Position numbers and translations under genes: made by a program
Notes under the pieces: generated by a model
Seen by the model: only the letters and a program-made list of their open reading frames with translations
Told to the model about the DNA's origin: nothing
Databases searched by the model: none
From: Gemmatimonadota bacterium
Lineage (GTDB): Bacteria > Latescibacterota > UBA2968 > GCA-2709665
Length of the DNA: 64,000 nt
Direction: 5' to 3'
Assembly: GCA_028873695.1 (NCBI GenBank)
Contig: JAPPNU010000029.1
Coordinates: forward strand, 50,383 to 114,382
Part shown: positions 5,063 to 59,873 of the stretch, in pieces
Layout of the letters: each line of letters opens with the position of its first letter
Numbering within the stretch: the stretch's first letter is position 1

Positions 5063-7078
5063 ATGAAAAGGACCATTCGACGGACGGCGATGCTGCACTT
5101 TGAGCGTGCGAGCTTTTCCCGGGACTACGTGAAGTGGGTCGGTGAGGAGGGGTTTACGGACATCGGATTGGGACTGAAACCCGACGACGATAAGATGACA
5201 GGGCAGGGATACGTCTGGGAAAAGGTCTGCCGGCTGGCGGAATGGGCCGGGGAATTCGAGCTTGGCGTGATCGTATTCACGGGATACATGAAATACCGCG
5301 AGACGTTTCTGCGGACCCACCCGGAACGCAGCCTCGTGTGCGTCGGGGGAAGCGGTACAGCCCTAGACAGCGACAATATCGTGAGGACACGGTGGCTCTG
5401 TCCGTTCCAGCCCGAGAACAAGGCGGAATACGTGGATCTGATTCACAAAGTGATCCGGCTGCCGGCACTCCGGGAAATCCATCTCAACGACGAGGCCGAG
5501 ATCGGGTTCTCGAACGGAGACGTGGGCTGCTACTGCGAGCACTGTGTCGCGTAATACGAACGCGACTCCGGCGAGCCGCCGCCGAGGGAGGTCGACTGGT
5601 CGTCCCCGTCCTGGTGGCGGTGGGTGCAGCACCGCATGGAGGCCTGGACCGCCGTTCACGCCTGGTTTCGCGAGGGAATCAAGAAGGTGCGGCCGGACGT
5701 CGTGGTGGGCATCCAGCATTCGCCTAAAGTGGTGACCTTCAACGACAATCCCTGGCTGTCCGGCATCGACCTGTCCCGCGACGCGGAAGCCATGGACGTA
5801 CTGTGTACCGACCCGTACCACCACATTCACTATTCTCATTTTACCTATCGTCCCATGCGCCGCATTCAGGCGGAAGCGACGCGCGCGCTGGCCGGAGCGA
5901 CGGTCGGGCGTTCCCTGTTCATCTATCCCCAGGGCTTCATGCCGCCCTCCGGGAGCCTGGAGTTGACGCGCCGGGACGGCTTCATGGCCGGGGCCGTGCC
6001 GTTCGCGCTGGGCGCGGAGAATATTTCGCCCTACACGTTCGATCTTTGCCAGATTATCCCGGGTTACTACGACGGTCTGAAGGACGCCGCGCGGCTGATT
6101 CCCTACTTTGAGAAAACGCGGCCTTACAGCGCCGCCACGTTGATCAAGCCCTCCCAGACGGAAATCTACGGGTATCCCGACAAACGATGGGGCCGGGAGG
6201 TCCTGGCGATCTGGCCGGACGTGATGAACCAGGTGGGGTTGCCCTGGCGATGGGTTTTCGACCGGCGGCTTCCAGATGCCGGCGATGCGTTGAGCGGCCC
6301 GGTCATCCTGCCGGACACCCACTGCCTGACGCGTGAACAGCGCTCCGTACTGGAATCGCATTCGGACGGAGGTAATGGGCTGCTCCGGGTGGGGCGGACG
6401 CCGTCCGGCGACTGGTCGGGCGAAGGCGCGCATCCGCCCCCCTCCGGCGACGAGACGGGGTTCTCGGAATTGAAGCCGGTCGATCCCGGCCATCCGCTGC
6501 TCGACGGTATCGATGCGCCCATCATGCTGGGGTCGGCGTTCCTGGAACCCGGTCTCGAAGGGGAAACGATCGCCGAAGTGGACGGGCGACCCGCTCTCGT
6601 AGCGGCCGAGTCCGACGGGCGGCGTGAGGTCTGGCTGGCGGGAACGCCCCTGTACAACTACGTGGAACCCGGAGACCACGGAGCCGTACGGACGCCTACG
6701 GGCGGGATGTCACTCTTGCGGAACGCGCTGGCGTGGCTGTCGGCCGAAGCGCCCGCGGCGAGGTTGTGGCCGTATCCTCCAAAAAACGACTACGGAGAAC
6801 TGCGTCCCTGGGACCGCCGGGACGTGCCGACGATGGAACTGTTTCCGAGTCTGGGAGACGGGTGCCTCGTCGGTCTGATCTTCAACTACCTGGGGCTGGC
6901 CTACGAGACGAATCTGGAGATGCGGGTTCCGGAAGGCGCGGCGGCAACAAGGCTGGTGGATATCTATTCCGGCGAGGATCTGATGGGATCCACGGCGGTC
7001 GACGGCCAGGTCGTCCGGTTGCCGGTAGATATGCCCGGCGACCGGGACTTCCTGGCGGTTGAACTGCAATGGGAGTAA
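5063..7078 (+). pseudogene. paralog of the 30163..32178 gene, interrupted by one in-frame TAA (5552-5554). Listed as two ORFs, 5063..5554 and 5624..7078.
   Basis: Both listed ORFs are in the same frame. Read through the stop, the sequence aligns end to end with the 677-aa paralog. 'GDVGCYCEHCVA*YERDSGEPPPREVDWSSPSWWRWVQHRM' aligns with 'GDVGCYCDYCVSEYEEEYGTPPPADFDWASEAWWAWVQRRM', so TAA sits where the paralog has GAA. Confidence 0.7.
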
Positions 7079-47147: not shown

Positions 47148-47970
47148 AGGCAACTCTTGCACAAGCCATGCGAATGTGCATGGACAGACGAAGGCAGAGG
47201 CGTTATCGGGAGAGATTATTGGATGATAATGCCTGGGGTGCCGTTATTGAACCCAGCCCTTTACAAGCGAACAGTTGTTTCCCATATTAAACCCAGCCTG
47301 CAATAGGGCCGCAATCATGAACCTTGGTAAACGTATACTCTGATACAACGTGAGCTAAACGCACAGCCAACGGGCCTGATTCACATTAGGAAAACTTGAT
47401 ACAGTCCGTCGAGCAACGGAAATCGGATCTTGAATTCTCCCTAAGGACGCCCGAACATTATGGTCAACGAAGTGCTCGAATCGACCGAGACCACGTATAC
47501 GGCAGTAACAATCCAATCAACCGATTGGCGTCCTACGGTATCTTCGAAGCATTTGGGCGTTACCAATTGTCCGTCGGGCGGTGACGTTTTCGATTCGTTT
47601 TCAACCGACGCCCACCCGCATGTATCCGGGAAGACGGCTAATCGTGAATTGTGCCATTAGACGATAAATGGTACAAATGGCATAAAATCGGCACAATCTT
47701 GGCATAAATCACTTTATAAATATTTGTTTTTTTGGATCTTATTACATTTTTCTTTCTTTACAAAACATAATACTTCACGCAAAAGAGTTATAACTCATGG
47801 GTTCGATGCGCAGATCCTCACGGGATGATGTATACCACGTTCGTTGTAGCCTAGACACAAATGCCGCGCCACCAGCAATGCTGACCGACATTGCGAATAG
47901 TCAATCTCCAGAGCCTGAGTTTCTATTGGCTGCCAATTGATCGCGAATTGTCAAAACGATAGCTGAATCC

Positions 47971-48020
47971 TATAACCCATTAATTTTATTGCATTTGTTT
48001 AATTGACGGGTAATTGACTG
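47971..48020 (+). repeat. 50-bp direct repeat, copy 1
   Basis: tataacccattaattttattgcatttgtttaattgacgggtaattgactg. Identical to 49883-49932 at 49 of 50 positions. Confidence 0.9.
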
Positions 48021-48219
48021 AAAACGCACTAAGACCATTGGCGTCCGCGTCCAGATGTTTACCTCGGTTGTTTCTAATAGAAAAAAACCCGTGAACGAGG
48101 GCTCGGCCAATCTGCCAAAGAAGACTGCCAAGCCGAAGTCCTGCCCATTGCGGATGCCCTGAACGGCGATGAGGTGACGATCGTTGTCGGTTTAGACACT
48201 GGATGCAAGAGGTCGCAAC

Positions 48220-49686
48220 ATGGCAACAAATAGAAGACGTGACTACCTTGTCGGCCTGGTAAGGGAGTTGTGCAATCTGCCATATGAGACCGAGTGGGTC
48301 GAATTCAAGGTCAATCACCGCAAGCCCCAGACCATAGGTGAGTACGTCTCGGCGCTTTCCAACGCGGCAGCCCTGCTCGATAAGGCCCACGGATACATCG
48401 TGTGGGGCATCGAAAATGAAACACACGACGTTGTTGGAACAGAATTCTCGCCGGCCGTCGCAAGGAAGGGCAGCGAGCCACTCGAAACTTGGCTGCTCCA
48501 GCTAACGAAGCCGAGAATCGACTTCTGCTTTTATGAAGTGACGATTGACGAAAAGCGCGTGGTAATCATGGAGATCGATCGTGCCTACCGGCAGCCAGTC
48601 GCCTTCTCGGGCGTCGAGTTTATCCGTATTGGCAGCACAAAGAGAAAACTCAAAGACTATCAGGAAAAGGAACGAGCACTCTGGCGCGTTTTCGACCGGG
48701 TGAGCTTCGAAGATGGCATCGCCGCCGAACGAGTAAGCAAAGATGAGGTTCTGTCATTGCTCGACTACCCGTCGTACTTCGACCTGCTTGAATTGCCGCT
48801 TCCCGATGGTCGTGAAGCCATCCTTAATGCATTGGAGAAAGACCGACTCATCGTCCGCAGCGAAGCAGGCGGCTTCGACGTTACGAACTTAGGCACCATC
48901 CTGTTCGCCAGGGATCTCGGCGAATTCCCAACCCTGAAGCGTAAAGCCATGCGCGTCATACAGTATCGGGGTAAGGGCAAGATAGAAACATTGAGAGAGC
49001 AGGAAGGCGTTCGCGGTTATGCGGTTGGATTCAAAGGGATTGTCGACTACATCATGGCGCTCGTGCCCTCGAACGAAGTGATGCAACAGGCCTTGCGAAG
49101 GTCCGTGCCGATGTTCCCGGATCTGGCTATTCGAGAACTCGTTGCCAACGCGCTCATCCATCAGGACTTTCTCGTCACGGGTGCAGGACCGATGGTAGAG
49201 ATCTTCGATGACCGCATAGAAATCACGAATCCCGGCGAGCCCCTCGTAGATACGCAGCGTTTTTTAGATACACCACCCAGATCCCGCAACGAAACCCTGG
49301 CCTCACTGATGCGCCGGGTTCGCATCTGCGAGGAACGAGGCAGTGGGATCGACAAGGTTGTCACTGAAATTGAGTCATACCATCTGCCAGCGCCGCTTTT
49401 CGAGGTTCCGCCCGGTTCTACCCGCGCGATCCTCTTTGCCCACAAGACCTTGGCTGACATGGACGGAGAGGAGCGGGTGAGAGCCTGCTACCTGCATGCA
49501 TGCCTCAAGTACGTGATGCGAGATTTCCTGACTAATGCGTCACTTCGGGAAAGGTTTGGCATCAAGCAGAACAACAAGGCTGTCGCCTCTCGCCGCATTC
49601 GCGAGGCCATGGACGCCGGCATGATCAAGCCGTTTGACGAGAATGCCTCCCGAAGAATGATGAAATACGTCCCGTACTGGGCTTGA
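48220..49686 (+). CDS. Schlafen/AlbA_2 ('divergent AAA') + HATPase_c_4-type DNA-binding/ATP-binding protein
   Basis: 'YETEWVEFKVNH' is the AlbA_2 hallmark. 'IRELVANALIHQDF' and 'ICEERGSGID' are GHKL-like motifs. The tail is wHTH-like. Confidence 0.8.
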   Translation: MATNRRRDYLVGLVRELCNLPYETEWVEFKVNHRKPQTIGEYVSALSNAAALLDKAHGYIVWGIENETHDVVGTEFSPAVARKGSEPLETWLLQLTKPRIDFCFYEVTIDEKRVVIMEIDRAYRQPVAFSGVEFIRIGSTKRKLKDYQEKERALWRVFDRVSFEDGIAAERVSKDEVLSLLDYPSYFDLLELPLPDGREAILNALEKDRLIVRSEAGGFDVTNLGTILFARDLGEFPTLKRKAMRVIQYRGKGKIETLREQEGVRGYAVGFKGIVDYIMALVPSNEVMQQALRRSVPMFPDLAIRELVANALIHQDFLVTGAGPMVEIFDDRIEITNPGEPLVDTQRFLDTPPRSRNETLASLMRRVRICEERGSGIDKVVTEIESYHLPAPLFEVPPGSTRAILFAHKTLADMDGEERVRACYLHACLKYVMRDFLTNASLRERFGIKQNNKAVASRRIREAMDAGMIKPFDENASRRMMKYVPYWA

Positions 49687-49882
49687 CCCCGTTTGTTGGG
49701 GATTGATCGACGGCCGGATCTCTCGGAAACCGCCAGAAATCGTATCAATTTACGGAAAAATGATCGAACGCATTCGAAAATGGTTGAATGGGCCGACATA
49801 TCTTTCTTTTTCAATAAGTTACGCCACAGAGGAGCAATAGACGGCCAATTGATCATGGAACTCCCGACAGCCGTTGAAATTC

Positions 49883-49932
49883 TATAACTCATTAATTTTA
49901 TTGCATTTGTTTAATTGACGGGTAATTGACTG
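49883..49932 (+). repeat. 50-bp direct repeat, copy 2
   Basis: See 47971-48020. Confidence 0.9.
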
Positions 49933-50048
49933 GAAGTGTCCAATGACCGCCGCCCGCGCCCGAGCCATCTTGTACGTGAGCACGGGCAAAACCGATGTTC
50001 GCGAGGCGGCCGGTCACTCTACCTATATTCCCAAACCCAGCGTAAGCT

Positions 50049-50979: not shown

Positions 50980-51010
50980 CCCATCCATAGTAAATCAGGT
51001 GGTTTGATCA

Positions 51011-51154
51011 ATGACAATTCCAGTCAAAGGCCACGTCCGGGACGCGACCTCAGGGACCGGACTCGAAGGTGTCCCCGTTTCCAACTGTGAGCACGTCGTG
51101 CGGACGGATTCGGACGGGCGTTACGCGCTGGAGGTCTCGCCGGGCGGGCGATGA
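51011..51154 (+). pseudogene. 47-codon 5' fragment of a gene encoding a carboxypeptidase-regulatory-like N-domain
   Basis: 'MTIPVKGHVRDATSGTGLEGVPVSNCEHVVRTDSDGRYALEVSPGG'. The fragment is GC-rich and is followed immediately by AT-richer DNA. A diverged second copy lies at 60067. Confidence 0.5.
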
Positions 51155-52172: not shown

Positions 52173-53228
52173 ATGAATGCGATAGATTTATTCGCTGGCG
52201 CGGGCGGCATGAGCGTTGGGGCAGTCCAAGCCGGTATTGATGTAAAATTCGCCGTCGAATGCGACAAGTTTGCTGCAGGAGCATATCGTATCAATCATCC
52301 TGGATGCGAAGTTTTCGCCGACGACATACGTAAATTACCTTCCCGAGTGATCGCACAAATTCCGCGTGGCTCCAATGGCACCGTTGTCTTCGGCGGGCCG
52401 CCGTGTCAGGGTTTCTCGTATTCCAATACACGCACGCGCGGGGCGTACAACGAGGACAATTGGTTATTTGAACACTTCGTGCGTGTTGTTAAACTCTGGC
52501 GGCCCGATTTTGTGGTACTCGAAAACGTACGAGGAATCATCGATACGGCCCAAGGTCTAATACTTCATGCCATTATAGATCGATTCGAGCGATTGGGATA
52601 TATACTCACATATGGCATTCTGAACTCGGTCGAGTTTGGCGTACCGCAAAATCGCAAGCGTTTTTTTCTTGTCGGTTCGCGAACAAACAGGTCGGCTGAG
52701 CTACCTCGCCCGGTAGAATCTCGATACACGACTGTCAGGGATGCTATTGGCGATCTGCCAAGTCTGGAAAACGGTGCATCAACGACTTGGCTTTCCTATG
52801 GAGACATCCCGCCTTCCAAATACGCCCGAAATCTACGCGAAAACCTATATGGTTGTTCAAGCCATTTCGTTACAAGAAACAGCGAGACGGTGCTACGTCG
52901 TTACACATTCGTACCTCCAGGTGGTAATTGGGAGGACATACCTCCGAATTTGATGCGTAATTACAAAGACAGAAATAGATGTCACACAGGGATTTATCAT
53001 AGACTTAGGTACGACCATCCGTCGATCGTAATCGGAAATTATCGTAAGAACATGCTCATCCATCCATCAGAGGATCGCGGCCTTTCTGTCCGTGAGGCAG
53101 CACGTATTCAGTCGTTTCCAGATACATACGAATTCGCTGGATCAATTGGCTTTCAGCAGCAACAGGTCGGAAATGCTGTACCCCCGCTACTTGCGAAAGC
53201 AGTATTTGAAAAAATTCGCTGCTGCTAA
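52173..53228 (+). CDS. dcm: DNA (cytosine-5)-methyltransferase
   Basis: Motifs I 'DLFAGAGG', IV 'GGPPCQGFS', VI 'ENV', VIII 'QNRKR', IX 'REAARIQSFPD', X 'GNAVPP'. Confidence 0.95.
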   Translation: MNAIDLFAGAGGMSVGAVQAGIDVKFAVECDKFAAGAYRINHPGCEVFADDIRKLPSRVIAQIPRGSNGTVVFGGPPCQGFSYSNTRTRGAYNEDNWLFEHFVRVVKLWRPDFVVLENVRGIIDTAQGLILHAIIDRFERLGYILTYGILNSVEFGVPQNRKRFFLVGSRTNRSAELPRPVESRYTTVRDAIGDLPSLENGASTTWLSYGDIPPSKYARNLRENLYGCSSHFVTRNSETVLRRYTFVPPGGNWEDIPPNLMRNYKDRNRCHTGIYHRLRYDHPSIVIGNYRKNMLIHPSEDRGLSVREAARIQSFPDTYEFAGSIGFQQQQVGNAVPPLLAKAVFEKIRCC

Positions 53229-53249
53229 TATCGGTCGAACGAATTTCAA

Positions 53250-54278
53250 TTGCTTCAAGTCAAGATCGGAGAAATCGAGAAGGTGTCAAACACAAGCTTT
53301 GACAGACAACTTCGAGACAAAGTCGTAGAGGATTTCGACGGCAACAGCGGAGAGGAACTAGCCAGCGCTTATCACCAAACAAAGTCGATGCTAGAGCAGC
53401 AAATCTACCCCCAAATTCAACGATCGGAACCCGATCTCTCGGATCACGGAACAGAACATATATCGAATGTACAAGAGAACGCAATTGACCTTCTTTCTCA
53501 TGATGGTAGAGTAAGTAACCTATCTGGCATCGAGATGTACTGTCTTGGGATGTTTATTCTCTTTCACGATACGGGTATCGTTTATGGCAGGGAAGGCCAT
53601 CACAAGAATGTCGGGAGAGTGTTTGATAAGATACGTGGAACAGCCGCTTCACTGCTTCGCGAGAAAACACTAGTTGTCCGAGCCACCGGTGCGCATACAG
53701 GCAAAGCGCTGGATGGATCGTACGATACCCTTAAGGAACTTGATGAGAACGACCACCTCAAACGGCGGCGGGTCCGCCTTCGAGAACTGGCAGCGGTGCT
53801 TCGGTTTGCCGATGAGTTGGCGGAGGGTCCTCAACGCACGTCGGAATTCATGCAGGATGAGGGTCTCTATGCACGAGAGTCACGACAATACCATGACAAC
53901 GCGAACATTACGCACATTCGGATTGAACGTGCTACAAACCGAATTGTGATTGATTACGAAATCAAAATCGAAACGGGCCTCCCAAGCGAAGTTCGTCGAT
54001 CAGGTTTAGTAGATCTGTTGGGCATTGTCTATAAGAGGATTCAAAAGCTCAACCAGGAGCGTCAATACGCGCGCTTTTATAGTGAACTCCTTGCACCCTT
54101 CAGATTTACTGAGGTTAAGTTCAACTTTCACTGTGACGGTGAAATCCTAGACACTGACCTCCTGCCGCTTAAACTGACCGATATTGTTGTGCCCGGTGAT
54201 CAGGCAAAAGAAATCCCATCTATAAACCCTGCTTATGCCATTAATGAACTTGCAGATGATATTCTAGCAAGATGTTAG
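53250..54278 (+). CDS. HD-superfamily metal-dependent phosphohydrolase/nuclease-like protein (operon gene 2)
   Basis: 'DHGTEHISNV' (His), 'LFHDTG' (HD) and 'RFADELAEG' (Asp) have H..HD..D spacing. The putative TTG start lies 21 nt after the dcm stop. Confidence 0.6.
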   Translation: MLQVKIGEIEKVSNTSFDRQLRDKVVEDFDGNSGEELASAYHQTKSMLEQQIYPQIQRSEPDLSDHGTEHISNVQENAIDLLSHDGRVSNLSGIEMYCLGMFILFHDTGIVYGREGHHKNVGRVFDKIRGTAASLLREKTLVVRATGAHTGKALDGSYDTLKELDENDHLKRRRVRLRELAAVLRFADELAEGPQRTSEFMQDEGLYARESRQYHDNANITHIRIERATNRIVIDYEIKIETGLPSEVRRSGLVDLLGIVYKRIQKLNQERQYARFYSELLAPFRFTEVKFNFHCDGEILDTDLLPLKLTDIVVPGDQAKEIPSINPAYAINELADDILARC

Positions 54279-54487
54279 CCCCAATTCGAAGAAAACAGCA
54301 ACGCGGCGAAGCGACGAAAATCCCTGAAACGGGGCACAAAAGTCGTTCAAAAGGTCGTTCCTTCAGTTCACGCCCGGTGACATGGTGTATCCTGTGCTCT
54401 TCCGAAGTCAAATCGCCTTTGTCTACTTGCATGTATTCGGTTTTACGTCCCTGAAAAATCACGCGTAATGGTTAGGAGAATTGTAGG

Positions 54488-56233
54488 ATGATTTTAGGAA
54501 GCAATCCGTTTCAGTTTGAAGCCGCAAACAACCTGACGGACGAGATGATTGCGGACTATTATATAGACGACTTCAATTATTCCCGATTCATTCAATCCAA
54601 ACGTAACATATTCTTGGTTGGTGAACGTGGTAGTGGCAAGACAATGGCTTTGTTGTTCAATAGATGGCGACTTCAAAAGCTGATTGCCGAGCGAAACGGA
54701 CAAGATCCATCACTTTCAACGATCGGTGTATATATACCTTGCAACACACCTCTAATTCATAAAGCCGAATATCAACTGCTTGACCCCTTTCTCGGGTCTG
54801 TCCTATCGGAACATTTCTTGGTCTTGTCAATCGTGCATGGCCTGATTGAGACAATTTCTGAAATACCTAATATACTCTTAGACACGGACGAGACAGATCT
54901 ACTCCAAGAAGCCAGTTATGTATTGGGAGCCGAATTGCCAGAGGGTAGAGGTTTTTTTGATGCAGCAAAACAGTTCCTTCAGCGTAGCTTACTGGATACT
55001 CAACGAGCAATCAACAGTGCGGGCCGGGAGACGTTCTATGACAATACATTCTCTTTTGCATCAGCGTTTGTTCCGGTATTAAATATATGTGTCAATAAAA
55101 TCCCACGGCTCGGTGATTCACATTTCCTGCTTTTGATTGATGACGCACACGCATTAAACGAACATCAGCTTCGTGCGCTAAACTCCTGGATAGCGTATCG
55201 TGATCATTCGCGCTTTAGCTTCAAGGTTGCGGTCGCAAAAGTTGGTAACCAAACTAGAGTCACGTCTTCCGGAGGGTCTATCCTTGATGGGCACGACTAC
55301 ACCAAAATCGACTTGGAAGCACCTTTGCAAAACAAAGAGACCAATTTCTATAAACTCGCAGAGAGGTTAATCAAACGTCGACTGGAGAAGATTTCTATAT
55401 CTGCTACTCCTAAGGAGTTTTTCCCAGTCAGCAAAGCCATGGAAAGGGATTTGAAATCATCGGAAATCGTGGTGCGGGAAGAGGCGATTCGTAAATTCGG
55501 CGAGGCTACCGAGTCCTCCAAAGCGGTAGCTGACTACATATATAAATACAAACGGGCGCATTATTTCAAGAATCGTCCATCGAAGGCGAACAGACCACCG
55601 TACTCTGGTTTTGAGACGTTGGTATATTTGTCGACTGGAGTAGTTCGCAATCTATTGGAGCCATGTTATAGGATGTTTGATAGTGCCGTATCGAGAGCTA
55701 GTGATATCAAACGTTCGAAAAGGTCCGGGACCTTTACCATTCCTCCCACAATCCAGACAAATGTCATTCTGGAACTAAGCAAAGACTCGTGGGATCGCCT
55801 GAGGAACAATATAGCTCAGTATATTGAGGACTGCTCTGAGGAAGATGGTCAACGAGCGTTTAAACTCCTTAATGCTCTTGCTGTCCACTTCCGATACCGG
55901 CTCCTGCATCATGAATCGGAACCATGCGCGTTGTCGTTTACAATATCAAGGCGCGAACATCACGCAATGGAACAATTAAGTCGCTTAATCGAAATACTTC
56001 GAAAGGCACAGCTCTTGTACATAACAAGCGGCCCGGCTAAGGACGATGGGCAAATAGAACCCTATTACGTGCCGAATAAAATCCTTTGGCCAATTCGGGG
56101 GTTGGATCCCTACGGACAACATGCAAGGGTCTCAATACCGGCCGAAATCCTTTGGAACGCGGCTGTGAGTGGCGAGATCAAACCGAAGAGCCCACAAGAA
56201 GACCAACAGATGGAGCTCTGGAATGACGAATAG
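54488..56233 (+). CDS. P-loop NTPase (ORC/Cdc6-like or STAND-like AAA ATPase) with long helical C-terminal region (operon gene 3)
   Basis: Walker A 'VGERGSGKT' and Walker B 'HFLLLIDDAH'. AGGAG lies upstream of the ATG. 581 aa. Confidence 0.7.
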   Translation: MILGSNPFQFEAANNLTDEMIADYYIDDFNYSRFIQSKRNIFLVGERGSGKTMALLFNRWRLQKLIAERNGQDPSLSTIGVYIPCNTPLIHKAEYQLLDPFLGSVLSEHFLVLSIVHGLIETISEIPNILLDTDETDLLQEASYVLGAELPEGRGFFDAAKQFLQRSLLDTQRAINSAGRETFYDNTFSFASAFVPVLNICVNKIPRLGDSHFLLLIDDAHALNEHQLRALNSWIAYRDHSRFSFKVAVAKVGNQTRVTSSGGSILDGHDYTKIDLEAPLQNKETNFYKLAERLIKRRLEKISISATPKEFFPVSKAMERDLKSSEIVVREEAIRKFGEATESSKAVADYIYKYKRAHYFKNRPSKANRPPYSGFETLVYLSTGVVRNLLEPCYRMFDSAVSRASDIKRSKRSGTFTIPPTIQTNVILELSKDSWDRLRNNIAQYIEDCSEEDGQRAFKLLNALAVHFRYRLLHHESEPCALSFTISRREHHAMEQLSRLIEILRKAQLLYITSGPAKDDGQIEPYYVPNKILWPIRGLDPYGQHARVSIPAEILWNAAVSGEIKPKSPQEDQQMELWNDE

Positions 56234-57113
56234 CGTACTTCTCATTACCTTCGCGAGTTGGGAAGACCGGTTCAAATTCGGATTCGAACGGAACATGGCT
56301 AATATGCCCTTTCACAAGGCATTGGTGTATTACTTTAGCAACTATAAGGATCGTACGAGAACCCATCGGCTGGAAGTTAAGAAAGCATGCGATAGTGAAC
56401 GTATCGAATATATCCCTGTCGTACTAGACATCAACAATCCTGCGGCAAATTGGCGATCCGTGTTGGAATCTTTCGAACGCTCTATAGAGGAATGTGAATC
56501 TGTCTATATTGACATTTCAACAATGCCCCGAGAGATTACATGGTACATTCTCTGGATGATTGAACAAAATTCGTTGGTAGCAAAATACGTTTATCACAGT
56601 CCCAGTGAATATGGCGACGAATGGTTGAGTCGAGATCCTAGGTCACCGCGGCTCGTCTACAAGCTATCAGGTATCGCGTGGCCCTTAGCGAAGACGGGAC
56701 TGTTAGTTACGGTCGGTTTTGATTCCTCAAGAGCAGAACGACTTATTAGTAGATATGAGCCTTCGAAACTGTTGATTGGTGTACAAACATCCTCCCATTT
56801 TTCCAGAAACGAATCGGAGATGGCAGTATATCAAGATAAGATCGATGAGTATAGCAAGAAATACGACTGTGAGATATTCGAGTTGGATGCGTTTGATGAA
56901 GATCGTGGAATGGTCAAGATTGAAGAAGCATTGAAGCCGCTTGTCAAATCGTTCAACATTCTAATGGGATCTTTAGGGCCAAAACTTACGGCAATATCGT
57001 TGTACAGGCTTCAGAGGAAATGGGATAACATCGGGCTAGTCTATGCCCCTTCCAACCAATTCAATGAGAAATATTCAAGCGGAATAGGGAATTGCTTCGA
57101 AGGTACCATATGA
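56223..57113 (+). CDS. tandem Rossmann-like (Csa3/CARF-like?) protein of unknown function (operon gene 4)
   Basis: The ATG at 56223 overlaps the upstream gene by 11 nt. Two similar half-modules are present: 'VLLITFASWEDRF...VYIDISTMPREITWYIL' and 'GLLVTVGFDSSRAERLI...FNILMGSLGPKLTAISLY'. Confidence 0.55.
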   Translation: MTNSVLLITFASWEDRFKFGFERNMANMPFHKALVYYFSNYKDRTRTHRLEVKKACDSERIEYIPVVLDINNPAANWRSVLESFERSIEECESVYIDISTMPREITWYILWMIEQNSLVAKYVYHSPSEYGDEWLSRDPRSPRLVYKLSGIAWPLAKTGLLVTVGFDSSRAERLISRYEPSKLLIGVQTSSHFSRNESEMAVYQDKIDEYSKKYDCEIFELDAFDEDRGMVKIEEALKPLVKSFNILMGSLGPKLTAISLYRLQRKWDNIGLVYAPSNQFNEKYSSGIGNCFEGTI

Positions 57114-57176
57114 ACCATTTGCTCTGAGAATCACTCACAGATCTTTCGAATACTCCGTGATGAGAGAAGGCTCAAA

Positions 57177-57680
57177 TTGCCAGACGCTGTTACCCGAGAA
57201 GTTAGAAGTCGAATAATGTCCGGTATCCGTTCTAAGGACACACGCATCGAACTTGAAGTACGCCGGCGGCTTTTTGCTTTGGGTTATCGCTATCGCATGC
57301 ATCGAAAGGATCTCCCAGGAACACCTGACATCGTGTTTCCGAAATTTCGAGCTGCGATATTTGTACATGGATGCTTCTGGCATTATCATGGATGCCACCT
57401 ATCTGTTGTCCCCCAGACACGGCGATCTTGGTGGTTAACGAAACTATCGAGGACCGCAAATCGGGATTTCGATGCTGTTTCCGAACTGCGTAAGCAGAGT
57501 TGGCGTGTACTCGTTATTTGGGAATGTGCATTTCGCAAGCCCCGCATCAACCGATGTGCCGCCCTAGATTCCATCGCGATACGAGCGGCTGATTTTCTCA
57601 ATTCAACTTCGGAGCTCGTTGAGATTCCTTGCCCCTTTGATAAATCACGATTTGACAGCCTATTTTCATTAGGATCATGA
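57177..57680 (+). CDS. vsr: very-short-patch repair endonuclease
   Basis: 'RSRIMSGIRSKDTRIELEVRRRLFALGYRYR...PGTPDIVFPKFRAAIFVHGCFWHYHGC'. Probable TTG start. Confidence 0.9.
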   Translation: MPDAVTREVRSRIMSGIRSKDTRIELEVRRRLFALGYRYRMHRKDLPGTPDIVFPKFRAAIFVHGCFWHYHGCHLSVVPQTRRSWWLTKLSRTANRDFDAVSELRKQSWRVLVIWECAFRKPRINRCAALDSIAIRAADFLNSTSELVEIPCPFDKSRFDSLFSLGS

Positions 57681-58041: not shown

Positions 58042-58968
58042 ATGGCCCACCGCAAATCGAACGCTAAGATTGTTTCAGAAAAGAGACGCTTCGTTGAAGC
58101 CCTAAGGCAATTTGCCGCAACGCTTCCAAACATGGTCACGACCCTTGATGGCGAATGGACAGTAAAAGGATTCATCGATGTCTATAAGAATATTTACACC
58201 ATAAGTTCCGACACCAAGATAGTTTCCAAGATTCTGGAAATTCATCTGTTCCCCAAAATCCTGCATCTAGCTGACCGGCTTGAGTATTCCATCGTCTTGG
58301 CCGAACACCAGAACTGGTATCCCGATCTCAGCCTTGTGAATAGGAAGGACGAATCAGTTAAATTCGCGCTTGACCTCAAGACTACCTATCGTGATCCAAT
58401 TCATCCTGGCCACGCGAACGGGTTCACATTAGGAAGCCATGGTAGCTACTTTAGAAATAGAACATCCACAAAAAACGTACAGTTTCCCTACTCGGCTTAC
58501 GCCGGTCACTTTTGCCTGGGGCTAATCTATTCGAGAGCAGACAAGAATAAGATCGACGAGTTTGGTGTTACTCAGGTCGGAGAACTGAAAGGCGACAGTC
58601 ACGATCGTGATTCAACGCTGGATACCGTTGTTGAGGTATCGAATCTCCAATCGATCGCATCAGTCATTAAGGACTTCGAGTTTTTCGTCTGTGAAAAATG
58701 GCAATTGGCCAGTGATCGCCAAGGGTCTGGAAACACCGCAAATATCGGATCCATTACTTATATCGAGGATATAGTCAGAGGACACGGAGTATTCGCAAAG
58801 TTGGGTGAGCACGTGTTTGATGAATATTGGATGAATTACAACGTTACAACGATGTTAAAGGCGGGCAAAGTTACTCCAATTCGAAGAATCGAGGACTTCT
58901 TGGAGTTCAAGGGTGGGAATCCGAGCCTGATCGTGCCAATGAAGACAAAAAGGAAGGGTCGCAAGTAG
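58042..58968 (+). CDS. EcoRV-like type II restriction endonuclease
   Basis: PD-(D/E)XK core 'QNWYPDLSL...FALDLKTTY', 'SSDTKIVSKILEIHLF', 'GSGNTANIGSI' and 'FDEYWMNY' closely parallel my recollection of R.EcoRV ('QNHYPDFTL..IAIDIKTTY', 'GSGNTTNIGSI'). Confidence 0.8.
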   Translation: MAHRKSNAKIVSEKRRFVEALRQFAATLPNMVTTLDGEWTVKGFIDVYKNIYTISSDTKIVSKILEIHLFPKILHLADRLEYSIVLAEHQNWYPDLSLVNRKDESVKFALDLKTTYRDPIHPGHANGFTLGSHGSYFRNRTSTKNVQFPYSAYAGHFCLGLIYSRADKNKIDEFGVTQVGELKGDSHDRDSTLDTVVEVSNLQSIASVIKDFEFFVCEKWQLASDRQGSGNTANIGSITYIEDIVRGHGVFAKLGEHVFDEYWMNYNVTTMLKAGKVTPIRRIEDFLEFKGGNPSLIVPMKTKRKGRK

Positions 58969-59873
58969 TGAACCGTGTCGTCGTTCCCCCACTCAAGAGT
59001 CAGGGAATCAAGACAAAGCTGGTTCCTTGGATCAAGAATCTGGCTCCGACGGTCTCTGGCAGATGGATAGAGCCATTCCTTGGTACAGGCGTAGTCGCAA
59101 TCAATTCGGGTTTCAGTCGGGCACTCCTGAATGACGCCAATCCCCACATTGTACGGTTCTACACCGCTATACAAGCTGGCGAAATAACGCCCGAATCAGT
59201 TCGAAATTACCTCGAATCTGAAGGTAAGGCACTTAGTAACGCAGGTGCCGATGGTTATGATCACTACAATTTTATCAAGGACAGATTTAACCGGGATCAT
59301 GCACCCCTCGACTTTCTTTTCTTGTCTAGAGCTGGATTCAATGGGATGATGAGGTTTAACAAGCGTGGCAATTGGAATATTCCTTTCTGCAAGAAGCCGA
59401 AAAGATTTAGTAAATCGTACATAACGAAGATTGTGAACCAAGTCCGTGATGTTGCAGTCATCATTGCAGATGAATGGCACTTTGTCTGTGGACCCTTTCA
59501 AGACACAATTGAGAATGCAGTCAGCGACGATTTCATTTATTGTGATCCACCTTATTATGGCAGATACGTAGACTATTATAACGGTTGGACTGAGGAGGAT
59601 GAAAAGGAATTGGCAGATCTGCTCGAAAAAACACCAGCGAAGTTCATTTTATCCACTTGGCACCACAACGACTATCGCGAAAACGAGATGATCGAAAAAT
59701 ACTGGTCTAATTTTAATATAGTTACTCGTGACCATTTCTATCACTCAGGCGGAAAGATCGAGAATCGTAAATCAATCGTCGAGGCACTGGTATTTAACTT
59801 CGATACGACGATAAAGCGTCACAATCACGGTGTAGTTGAAAGGCCGCAGCAGCTGTTCATATTGGACAGATAA
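58968..59873 (+). CDS. Dam/EcoRV-type N6-adenine DNA methyltransferase
   Basis: 'PPLKSQGIKTKLVPWI', motif I 'EPFLGTGVV', motif IV 'CDPPYYG', 'STWHHNDYREN'. The GTG start shares one base with the R-gene TAG (TAGTG). Confidence 0.85.
   Translation: MNRVVVPPLKSQGIKTKLVPWIKNLAPTVSGRWIEPFLGTGVVAINSGFSRALLNDANPHIVRFYTAIQAGEITPESVRNYLESEGKALSNAGADGYDHYNFIKDRFNRDHAPLDFLFLSRAGFNGMMRFNKRGNWNIPFCKKPKRFSKSYITKIVNQVRDVAVIIADEWHFVCGPFQDTIENAVSDDFIYCDPPYYGRYVDYYNGWTEEDEKELADLLEKTPAKFILSTWHHNDYRENEMIEKYWSNFNIVTRDHFYHSGGKIENRKSIVEALVFNFDTTIKRHNHGVVERPQQLFILDR

Follow-up and report, generated by a model that had tools for sequence, protein, structure and literature searches.

We analyzed a window of 64,000 nucleotides (nt) from a Gemmatimonadota bacterium (Latescibacterota in the GTDB lineage; assembly GCA_028873695.1, contig JAPPNU010000029.1, positions 50,383 to 114,382). 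The window carries a cassette of five genes, which encode a C5 DNA cytosine methyltransferase (Dcm), an HD-CE phosphohydrolase, an ORC/Cdc6-like (STAND-like) AAA+ P-loop ATPase, a tandem-CARF protein and a Vsr T:G mismatch endonuclease (Table 1). Judged by its relatives in sequence collections, this cassette represents a widespread, conserved module of four genes with a predicted immune ('conflict') function, in which Vsr is optional. The CARF identity of the last core protein changes the likely mechanism. We tentatively read the module as an abortive response that would be sensed by the CARF protein, switched by the ATPase, executed by the HD-CE protein and dependent on the 5-methylcytosine (m5C) mark of the operon itself, and give this reading a probability of roughly 0.35.

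Related loci were collected in two sets. For the first set, one genome per species was scanned with an alignment of the ATPase, which gave 71 loci, and the five window proteins were searched against the six-frame open reading frames (ORFs) of these loci. For the second set, metagenomes were scanned with an alignment of the distant-clade ATPases (A5), and 80 loci were kept of 395 relatives. An alignment that mixed both clades (A4) was too diverse for the metagenome scan, and A5 was used instead. All four core genes were found in 64 of the 71 first-set loci, in the order Dcm-HD-ATPase-CARF in 57 and HD-ATPase-CARF-Dcm in 7. The remaining loci were either cut by contig ends (5) or variants (2; L050 and L067). 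The second set contained 57 complete Dcm-HD-ATPase-CARF loci, 19 cut by contig ends and 4 that were different. Among these four, L144 lacked CARF and L157 had an inverted Dcm; in L155 (8467-9564) and L159 (9926-11077), a GHKL-type ATPase gene (HATPase_c_3) followed CARF. No Dcm was found in the 4-6 kilobases (kb) upstream in L155 and L159, and their contigs end inside the HATPase_c_3 gene, about 1.2 kb past CARF, so that a more distant Dcm may have been missed. Dcm was present in every complete first-set locus and, in the second set, in all but these two. Found as a four-gene unit in about 120 independent loci of the 151, the arrangement is, on these counts, far beyond chance.

The first-set loci came from Latescibacterota, Gammaproteobacteria, Binatia, Acidobacteriota, Planctomycetota, Bacteroidota, Verrucomicrobiota, Chloroflexota, Desulfobacterota, Chlorobi, Fusobacteria and Clostridia. 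Overall, more than ten phyla and several plasmids harboured the module. The distant clade was first met on plasmids of Rhizobium, Yoonia, Agrobacterium and Spirosoma, with an ATPase identity of 22-26%. The Yoonia and Agrobacterium plasmids had the same gene order and the same three families, and the Spirosoma plasmid carried the cassette Dcm and the ATPase. The cassette loci sit in mobile defence islands beside restriction-modification, AbiE and Schlafen/AlbA genes. A mirror-tree comparison of pairwise-identity matrices gave r values of 0.79-0.81 among HD, ATPase and CARF, and of 0.51-0.59 with Dcm. After clustering the flanks of the 71 loci (8 kb each), we found no further conserved family and no recurring cas or cyclase gene. 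What recurred in the flanks was solely additional Dcm genes, ThyX and an ATPase, in no more than 9 of the 71 loci, indicating that no cyclase is encoded with the module. A first-pass annotation, made from the letters of the window and its ORF list, had proposed that the trio between dcm and vsr belonged to an undescribed restriction-like defence system. The co-occurrence of the trio outside the source genome, seen in both locus sets, and the plasmid copies upheld a module that is conserved, moves horizontally and comes with an m5C methylase of its own.

Two variants were informative about the parts. L050 (381-6300), from a Desulfovibrio metagenome-assembled genome, encodes ThyX, Dcm, the ATPase and then an 826-residue fusion of CARF, GNAT and class I S-adenosylmethionine (SAM)-methyltransferase domains, and has no HD gene. 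The decayed locus L067 has retained Dcm and lost HD and half of the ATPase.

In the ORF listing of the window, all five ORFs were intact and co-directional on the + strand, at the coordinates given in the first-pass annotation. The junctions it had reported were also reproduced. Between dcm (stop at 53228) and HD (TTG start) there are 21 nt, the ATPase gene overlaps the CARF gene (ATG at 56223) by 11 nt, and 63 nt lie between 57113 and the vsr start. Its description of tight spacing applies to these three junctions and fails for HD and ATPase, which are 209 nt apart. The same gap is 13 nt in the nearest relatives (L072-L074), and the HD and ATPase stop-to-stop ORFs overlap in most other loci. 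The 209-nt spacer sequence occurred once, without a repeat in the window or among the loci. The short ORFs of the spacer region were 54241-54462 (-) and 54272-54454 (+). An Rfam scan of 50.8-58.2 kb, spacer included, gave no match, and promoter-like and terminator-like sites were not more numerous than shuffled expectation. The public gene call starts the HD gene with GTG at 53283 instead of TTG at 53250.

The predicted nucleotide sensor, the third protein of the trio, matched the PADLOC model PDLC01917 ('CARF6--CARF_CARF_CARF') end to end (1.2e-35), and its Agrobacterium homologue matched the same model at 1e-94. We take the CARF6 models of PADLOC to derive from the 2020 CARF census of Makarova et al. 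The match to Pfam Csa3_N was marginal (E 0.04), and a profile search against the sequences of the PDB gave no meaningful match. The AlphaFold2 model (pLDDT 89, pTM 0.90) had the two Rossmann-like halves that the first-pass annotation had recognized. When the model was compared with the PDB by Foldseek, Can1 (6sce) gave the highest query TM-score (TMq, 0.55), and single halves superposed on Cam1, Can2 and the ring nuclease Sso2081 at a root-mean-square deviation of 3-4 angstroms. Tandem USP-like and KaiC folds had better Foldseek E-values than the CARF structures, and the fold evidence alone is moderate; the CARF call was made because of the profile match and the fold together. Can1 is a cyclic-oligoadenylate-activated type III CRISPR nuclease. 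It contains two CARF domains in one chain, which form an intramolecular pseudo-dimer.

In 128 CARF sequences from both clades, E14, R16, D97, Y124, R143, G150, G165, R170, P180, N245, K254, Y274 and Y284 were at least 95% conserved. E14, R16, D97, G165, R170, N245 and K254 are in or beside the loops after the predicted beta1 and beta4 strands of both halves. These loops would be at the canonical CARF ligand-binding position, and the Arg, Lys, Asp and Tyr that are conserved there are suggestive, and only suggestive, of nucleotide binding. A symmetric ligand is made less likely by the difference between the two halves. The first-pass annotation had missed this sensor subunit, and its presence opens a reading other than restriction.

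The predicted effector was assigned to the Pfam family HD-CE (PF24391) at 1.2e-19, with 71.4 bits against a cutoff of 27. H66, H70, H106-D107, H117, H149 and D188 (numbering of the 342-residue protein) were at least 95% conserved in 132 homologues, among them the H..HD..D residues noted at first pass. As judged from its sequence, the protein is a metal-dependent phosphohydrolase with all ligand residues conserved. Its AlphaFold2 model had a pLDDT of 91. Foldseek matches in the PDB were weak (E >=1e-3); they were the helical HD-like domain of PPX/GppA and cyclic-nucleotide phosphodiesterases, not nuclease HD domains. The 'HD nuclease' of the first-pass annotation was an assumption. A profile search against PDB sequences gave no meaningful match.

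HD-CE and PRTase-CE were reportedly named together with Calcineurin-CE by Nicastro and colleagues in 2023, and the consecutive Pfam accessions fit an origin in that study. A nucleotide-degrading activity is predicted for the HD-CE family. 'CE' stands for 'conflict effector', a term for predicted attackers of the nucleotide pool (bioRxiv 10.64898/2026.01.15.699771). This preprint credits the Calcineurin-CE family to Nicastro, Burroughs, Iyer and Aravind (2023, NAR 51:11479).

The ATPase matched the Pfam family ORC-CDC6-like (PF24389) over essentially its full length (4.6e-98, 329.8 bits against a cutoff of 27), with weak hits to AAA_16 and AAA_22. The Walker A (GERGSGKT) and Walker B (LLLIDDAH) motifs that the first-pass annotation had read were present, and G45, R47, G48, G50, K51, D218 and D219 were at least 95% conserved in 141 homologues, with K51, D218 and D219 invariant. 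The family consensus is GxRGxGK[ST] for Walker A, with an Arg in the P-loop, and hhhhDD for Walker B, and an N-terminal NPF is invariant. Among 1.84 billion representative sequences, the family comprised 1083 clusters (50% identity) at E <=1e-3 and 240 at E <=1e-30; by these numbers, it is small but real. No relatives were found in complete E. coli genomes, in phage genomes or in IMG/VR viral contigs, and a profile search against PDB sequences gave no meaningful match.

Weak links to other ATPases came from the distant clade. The PADLOC model PDLC01925 ('CARF6--CARF_STK_AAA'), which represents kinase-AAA-CARF fusions, matched 3 of 12 distant ATPases weakly (5e-5), and mad8 of MADS matched another 3 of the 12 weakly (7e-5). 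One distant ATPase had a marginal BrxL hit (E 0.01). The window ATPase matched neither PDLC01925 nor mad8. Kinase-AAA-CARF fusion proteins have been described with an Arg in the P-loop, as in the cassette ATPase. Two apparent Rosetta-stone fusions were rejected as frameshift artefacts. P0370 (925 residues, HD-CE and ATPase) had an Arg-rich, out-of-frame-looking junction and no N-terminal NPF; P0506 (ATPase C-terminus and CARF) had a similar junction and no NPF segment.

The methylase matched PF00145 over residues 1-348, its full length (8e-63), and TIGR00675 (2e-57). The catalytic motifs of a C5 cytosine methyltransferase were visible as PCQ, ENV, QxRxR and GNAVPP, confirming the m5C methyltransferase named at first pass. 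Among plasmid Dcms, the best four matches (45-55% identity) came from 4 of the 5 plasmids that carry the ATPase, and the next 130 listed had at most 38% identity to the cassette Dcm. By these identities, the cassette Dcms are a distinct clade. Across the deepest split, Dcm identity was 45-55%, far above that of the ATPase (22-25%). The mean top-residue frequency was 0.61 in the target-recognition region and 0.59 in the catalytic core. The target-recognition region is thus conserved like the catalytic core. One specificity has probably been kept. Among solved structures, the best match was eukaryotic DNMT1 (3e-50), which covered both halves and included parts of the target-recognition domain; M.HaeIII and M.HhaI were far behind as PDB sequence matches. 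The closest non-cassette plasmid Dcm (38% identity) pairs with a NotI-family endonuclease. Its recognition loops differ from those of the cassette Dcm, and no site could be assigned from this relative.

The fifth gene was confirmed as vsr by PF03852 (2e-30) and TIGR00632 (2e-40). Vsr was present in 12 of the 71 and 13 of the 80 related loci (about 16%), at variable positions and on either strand. On this distribution, it is an accessory and neither a core nor a defining part. That Vsr is present argues for real methylation of genomic DNA by the methylase.

ThyX, a flavin-dependent thymidylate synthase, was a second recurring neighbour. It adjoined the cassette in 10 of the 71 first-set loci (L012, L017, L020, L023, L029, L037, L049, L050, L054 and L060), in most cases no more than 50 nt away and in the same orientation. 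Its RHRx7S motif was intact in nine of these ten genes, and the tenth was cut by a contig end. The second set had it in 9 of its 80 loci (L081-L085, L087, L088, L093 and L122). It was also found on the Agrobacterium plasmid (L076, 8703-9641), and the window contains no ThyX gene. ThyX, like Dcm, methylates C5 of a pyrimidine; it adjoins the cassette in about 12% of the loci.

The cassette was compared with known defence systems. PADLOC 2.0 and NCBIfam gave it no system name; NCBIfam has no model for the middle trio, PADLOC has none for HD or the ATPase, and the plasmid homologues are labelled 'hypothetical protein' in RefSeq. No PD-(D/E)XK, HNH, PLD or GIY-YIG family was found in the three middle proteins with Pfam, PADLOC and NCBIfam. 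The first-pass statements that the trio has no classical restriction-nuclease signature and corresponds to no named system stood, the latter for PADLOC 2.0 and NCBIfam. Its statement that the trio could not be matched did not, since the three proteins are HD-CE (71 bits), ORC-CDC6-like (330 bits) and CARF6 (PDLC01917, 1e-35). The word 'undescribed' was also too strong. By these family matches, comparative genomics has the parts of the module on record, and the operon itself has probably been noted computationally. Nicastro et al. (2023) may have described this Dcm-CARF operon. Literature under the names CARF6 or HD-CE contained nothing relevant.

The window HD protein and ATPase both scored above the curated cut-offs of families PF24391 and PF24389, which belong to the conflict-effector systems, themselves comparative-genomic predictions. 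The closest likeness in logic was to PUA-Cal-HAD, which combines a nucleotide sensor with a CE phosphoesterase and is triggered by N6-methyl-dAMP (m6-dAMP) from phage-degraded host DNA. Ligand-driven higher-order assembly is followed by depletion of deoxynucleotides (dNTPs) and abortive infection. In E. coli, its methylase is the host Dam, which is outside the two-gene module, and Dcm is dispensable (all from bioRxiv 10.64898/2026.01.15.699771). It shares with the cassette a nucleotide sensor, a CE effector and a link to a DNA methylase, and the likeness is in logic only. PUA-Cal-HAD has a PUA-like sensor, Calcineurin-CE and HAD, and no AAA+ ATPase, whereas the cassette has CARF, HD-CE and an AAA+ ATPase.

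Other systems shared single features. Can1 resembles the CARF protein in having two CARF halves per chain (at the TMq given above) and in the position of the conserved residues at the beta1 and beta4 loops. Unlike Can1 and the type III CARF effectors, the cassette CARF has no fused effector, no nearby Cas10 or cyclase, and halves that are unlike. No Cas10 or CD-NTase of cyclic-oligonucleotide signalling was found among the window proteins scanned with PADLOC. BrxC of BREX is an ATPase of the ORC/Cdc6 clade, whose members bind DNA. BREX likewise combines a methylase, such an ATPase (BrxC) and a phosphoesterase-type effector (PglZ) without a classical restriction nuclease. However, BREX uses the N6-adenine methylase PglX together with BrxA, BrxB, PglZ and BrxL and has no CARF, and the BREX models did not hit the window proteins. 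Dcm-Vsr type II cassettes, BsuMI and LlaJI also have an m5C methylase with Vsr, and their adjoining genes are restriction candidates. A test for McrBC-like subunits found no AAA_5, McrB or McrC family in the trio (Pfam, PADLOC, NCBIfam). STAND NTPases (Avs/NLR-like) resemble the module in the hhhhDD Walker B, the weak AAA_16 and AAA_22 hits and the sensor-switch-effector logic. They differ in that the cassette splits sensor, switch and effector into three polypeptides and has no repeat-type sensor domain. The mad1-mad8 set of MADS was not found in the window.

From these data, we infer complex formation, the ligand, the HD-CE substrate and the role of methylation. The co-evolution of the HD, ATPase and CARF proteins, together with their probable translational coupling, suggests that the three would work in a single complex. 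An asymmetric pocket in the tandem CARF would bind a nucleotide ligand. The ligand-bound CARF would drive the ATPase, which may be an ATP-dependent switch or an assembly scaffold in a STAND-like manner. The ATPase would turn on the HD-CE effector, which would hydrolyse nucleotides, possibly nucleic acid, and would stop phage replication, probably at a cost to host growth. Dcm would write a mark that the pathway needs, and Vsr would limit the mutational cost of 5-methylcytosine. As the leading candidate for the role of the mark, phage degradation of the m5C-marked chromosome would free 5-methyl-dC nucleotides as an alarm ligand. PUA-Cal-HAD offers a parallel, in which a methylome-derived nucleotide triggers a CE effector to deplete dNTPs. 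In full, the Dcm of the operon would make the chromosome a reservoir of latent alarm; phage-freed 5-methyl-dC nucleotides or short m5C oligonucleotides would bind the asymmetric CARF pocket and promote ATP-dependent ATPase assembly and nucleotide depletion by HD-CE in a CARF pathway without a cyclase. We regard this specific pathway as unlikely. If true, CARF would have its first non-CRISPR ligand of this sort, and the m6-dAMP alarm would have a counterpart based on m5C.

The closest rival, close behind the abortive response in our estimate and itself on the unlikely side, is that the module is restriction-like. Dcm would protect the host, the ATPase would find unmethylated sites on incoming DNA and, with ATP, assemble HD, which would cut the DNA, or there would be a BREX-like block, and CARF would be structural or licensing. 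A methylase strictly linked to a defence operon is usually a self-mark, and the near-strict Dcm linkage (every complete first-set locus) agrees with this role. So do the dedicated Dcm clade, with its conserved target-recognition region and better conservation than the ATPase, and the retention of Dcm in L067 after the loss of HD and half of the ATPase. Vsr and the neighbouring restriction-modification systems provide a restriction-modification context, ORC/Cdc6-clade ATPases bind DNA, BrxC included, and the conserved H..HD..H..D residues would, in our own reading, suit a two-metal nuclease. Several observations lead away from a plain restriction enzyme. Pfam, PADLOC and NCBIfam recognized no nuclease or translocase fold. 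The HD family is named a conflict effector and is reportedly grouped with the nucleotide-targeting CEs, and its model resembles phosphodiesterases. L050 lacks HD, and the GNAT and methyltransferase domains that it carries cannot cut DNA. The effector genes are co-transcribed with Dcm and precede it in 7 loci, an awkward order for a lethal restriction enzyme and a danger to a naive host. A restriction role also leaves the conserved CARF ligand loops unexplained; a conserved pocket for small molecules calls for something to bind, and no enzymes of the operon other than C5-pyrimidine methylases modify nucleotides.

Several points weigh against the abortive response as we propose it. That the ATPase has a role in a pathway based purely on small molecules is an assumption, made on the analogy of STAND proteins. 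The weak fold matches of HD (E >=1e-3) may leave room for nuclease activity, and the H..HD..H..D set would, as we read it, also suit a two-metal centre as in Cas3-type nucleases. The dedicated Dcm clade and its conserved target-recognition region fit better with models of direct DNA-site recognition; if any m5C sufficed, neither would be required. To our knowledge, CARF domains have been found to bind cyclic oligoadenylates or RNA ends and no mononucleotide. A full-text literature search, which did not extend to Burroughs 2015, Makarova 2020 and Nicastro 2023, found no experiment on any family member.

A hybrid with two signals would take from both readings. The ATPase would read unmethylated DNA, HD-CE would fire only when CARF has bound an infection nucleotide, and nucleotide degradation would result. 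It would reconcile the dedicated Dcm clade with the nucleotide-sensor and conflict-effector identities, and it would remove the difficulty, for operons with Dcm as the last gene, of becoming established in a new host. It is less parsimonious, we know of no precedent for it, and we consider it improbable.

We see little chance that CARF listens in trans to the cyclase of a distant type III CRISPR-Cas or CBASS system, with HD-CE as effector or as a ring-nuclease-like remover and Dcm secondary. CARFs of known ligand mostly bind cyclic oligoadenylates, and the folds matched are those of Can1, Cam1, Can2 and Sso2081. Against this, the 71 flanks held no recurring cas or cyclase gene, the Dcm linkage is near-universal, the cassette is found on small plasmids without CRISPR, and the unlike CARF halves speak against a symmetric ligand. 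Equally far-fetched is an upkeep function for a methylated genome, in which HD-CE would clear 5-methyl-dCTP or related nucleotides like human DCTPP1, Vsr would repair T:G mismatches and ThyX would keep thymidylate in balance. Dcm, Vsr and ThyX share a link to 5-methylpyrimidines and ThyX recurs beside the cassette in both sets, but a 581-residue AAA+ switch plus a sensor seems excessive for pool cleaning, and the cassette has a patchy horizontal distribution over many phyla and plasmids and sits in mobile defence islands.

The surroundings of the cassette in the window were also examined. G+C content dropped to 0.44-0.49 over 51.5-60 kb. The cassette, an EcoRV-type pair and a giant ORF are together in a segment of about 14.9 kb bounded by two copies of a 155-nt direct repeat (6508-6662 and 21397-21551 in L077). 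The metagenome scaffold_238 of ENA ERZ23495468 was identical to the window over the 19 kb compared. The upstream repeat copy is a 47-residue fragment of a CarboxypepD_reg/Metallophos gene whose intact 5' end sits downstream. This arrangement carries the signature of insertion at the 5' end of the CarboxypepD_reg/Metallophos gene. The called genes included no integrase.

Table 1. Coordinates of the cassette and of neighbouring features (positions in the window)
Feature	Position	Strand	Description
155-nt direct repeat, upstream copy	50995-51149	+	95% identical to downstream copy
dcm (C5 DNA cytosine methyltransferase)	52173-53228	+	351 aa; opens the cassette
HD gene (HD-CE phosphohydrolase, predicted effector)	53250-54278	+	342 aa; TTG start
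HD-ATPase spacer	54279-54487		209 nt; non-coding
ORC/Cdc6-like (STAND-like) AAA+ P-loop ATPase gene	54488-56233	+	581 aa
Tandem-CARF gene (predicted nucleotide sensor)	56223-57113	+	296 aa; ATG start; alternative start 56169, 314 aa
vsr (Vsr T:G mismatch endonuclease, accessory)	57177-57680	+	167 aa
EcoRV-family endonuclease gene	58042-58968		PF09233, 1e-104
Dam-type N6-adenine methylase gene	58968-59873		PF02086, TIGR00571
1769-aa ORF	about 60381 to beyond 64000	+	weak sacsin (SACS) match; inside the island
155-nt direct repeat, downstream copy	about 65884-66038 by offset, outside the window		5' end of CarboxypepD_reg/Metallophos gene
Schlafen/AlbA_2 + HATPase_c_4 gene	48220-49686

The EcoRV-family endonuclease and the Dam-type methylase form a separate type II restriction-modification pair that adjoins vsr. 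The listed ORF start of the methylase (58827) is probably too early, and the public call starts at the endonuclease stop. Outside the repeat-bounded segment, the Schlafen/AlbA_2 and HATPase_c_4 gene is flanked by a direct repeat of its own (47966-48036 and 49878-49948; about 58-71 nt, 87-95% identical, 1912 nt apart). Genes with these domains were also found near the cassette in L073 and L074.

Without vsr, the module measures about 4.3 kb; it is compact, easily cloned and a good experimental target. CARF is known mainly as the receiver of cyclic oligoadenylates in CRISPR-Cas, and here it is fixed in a methylase-led operon without a cyclase. The CARF ligand and the HD-CE substrate would settle what non-CRISPR CARF proteins sense. 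With them in hand, it would also be clear whether nucleotides from the methylome serve generally as a danger signal or the module is a new restriction class.

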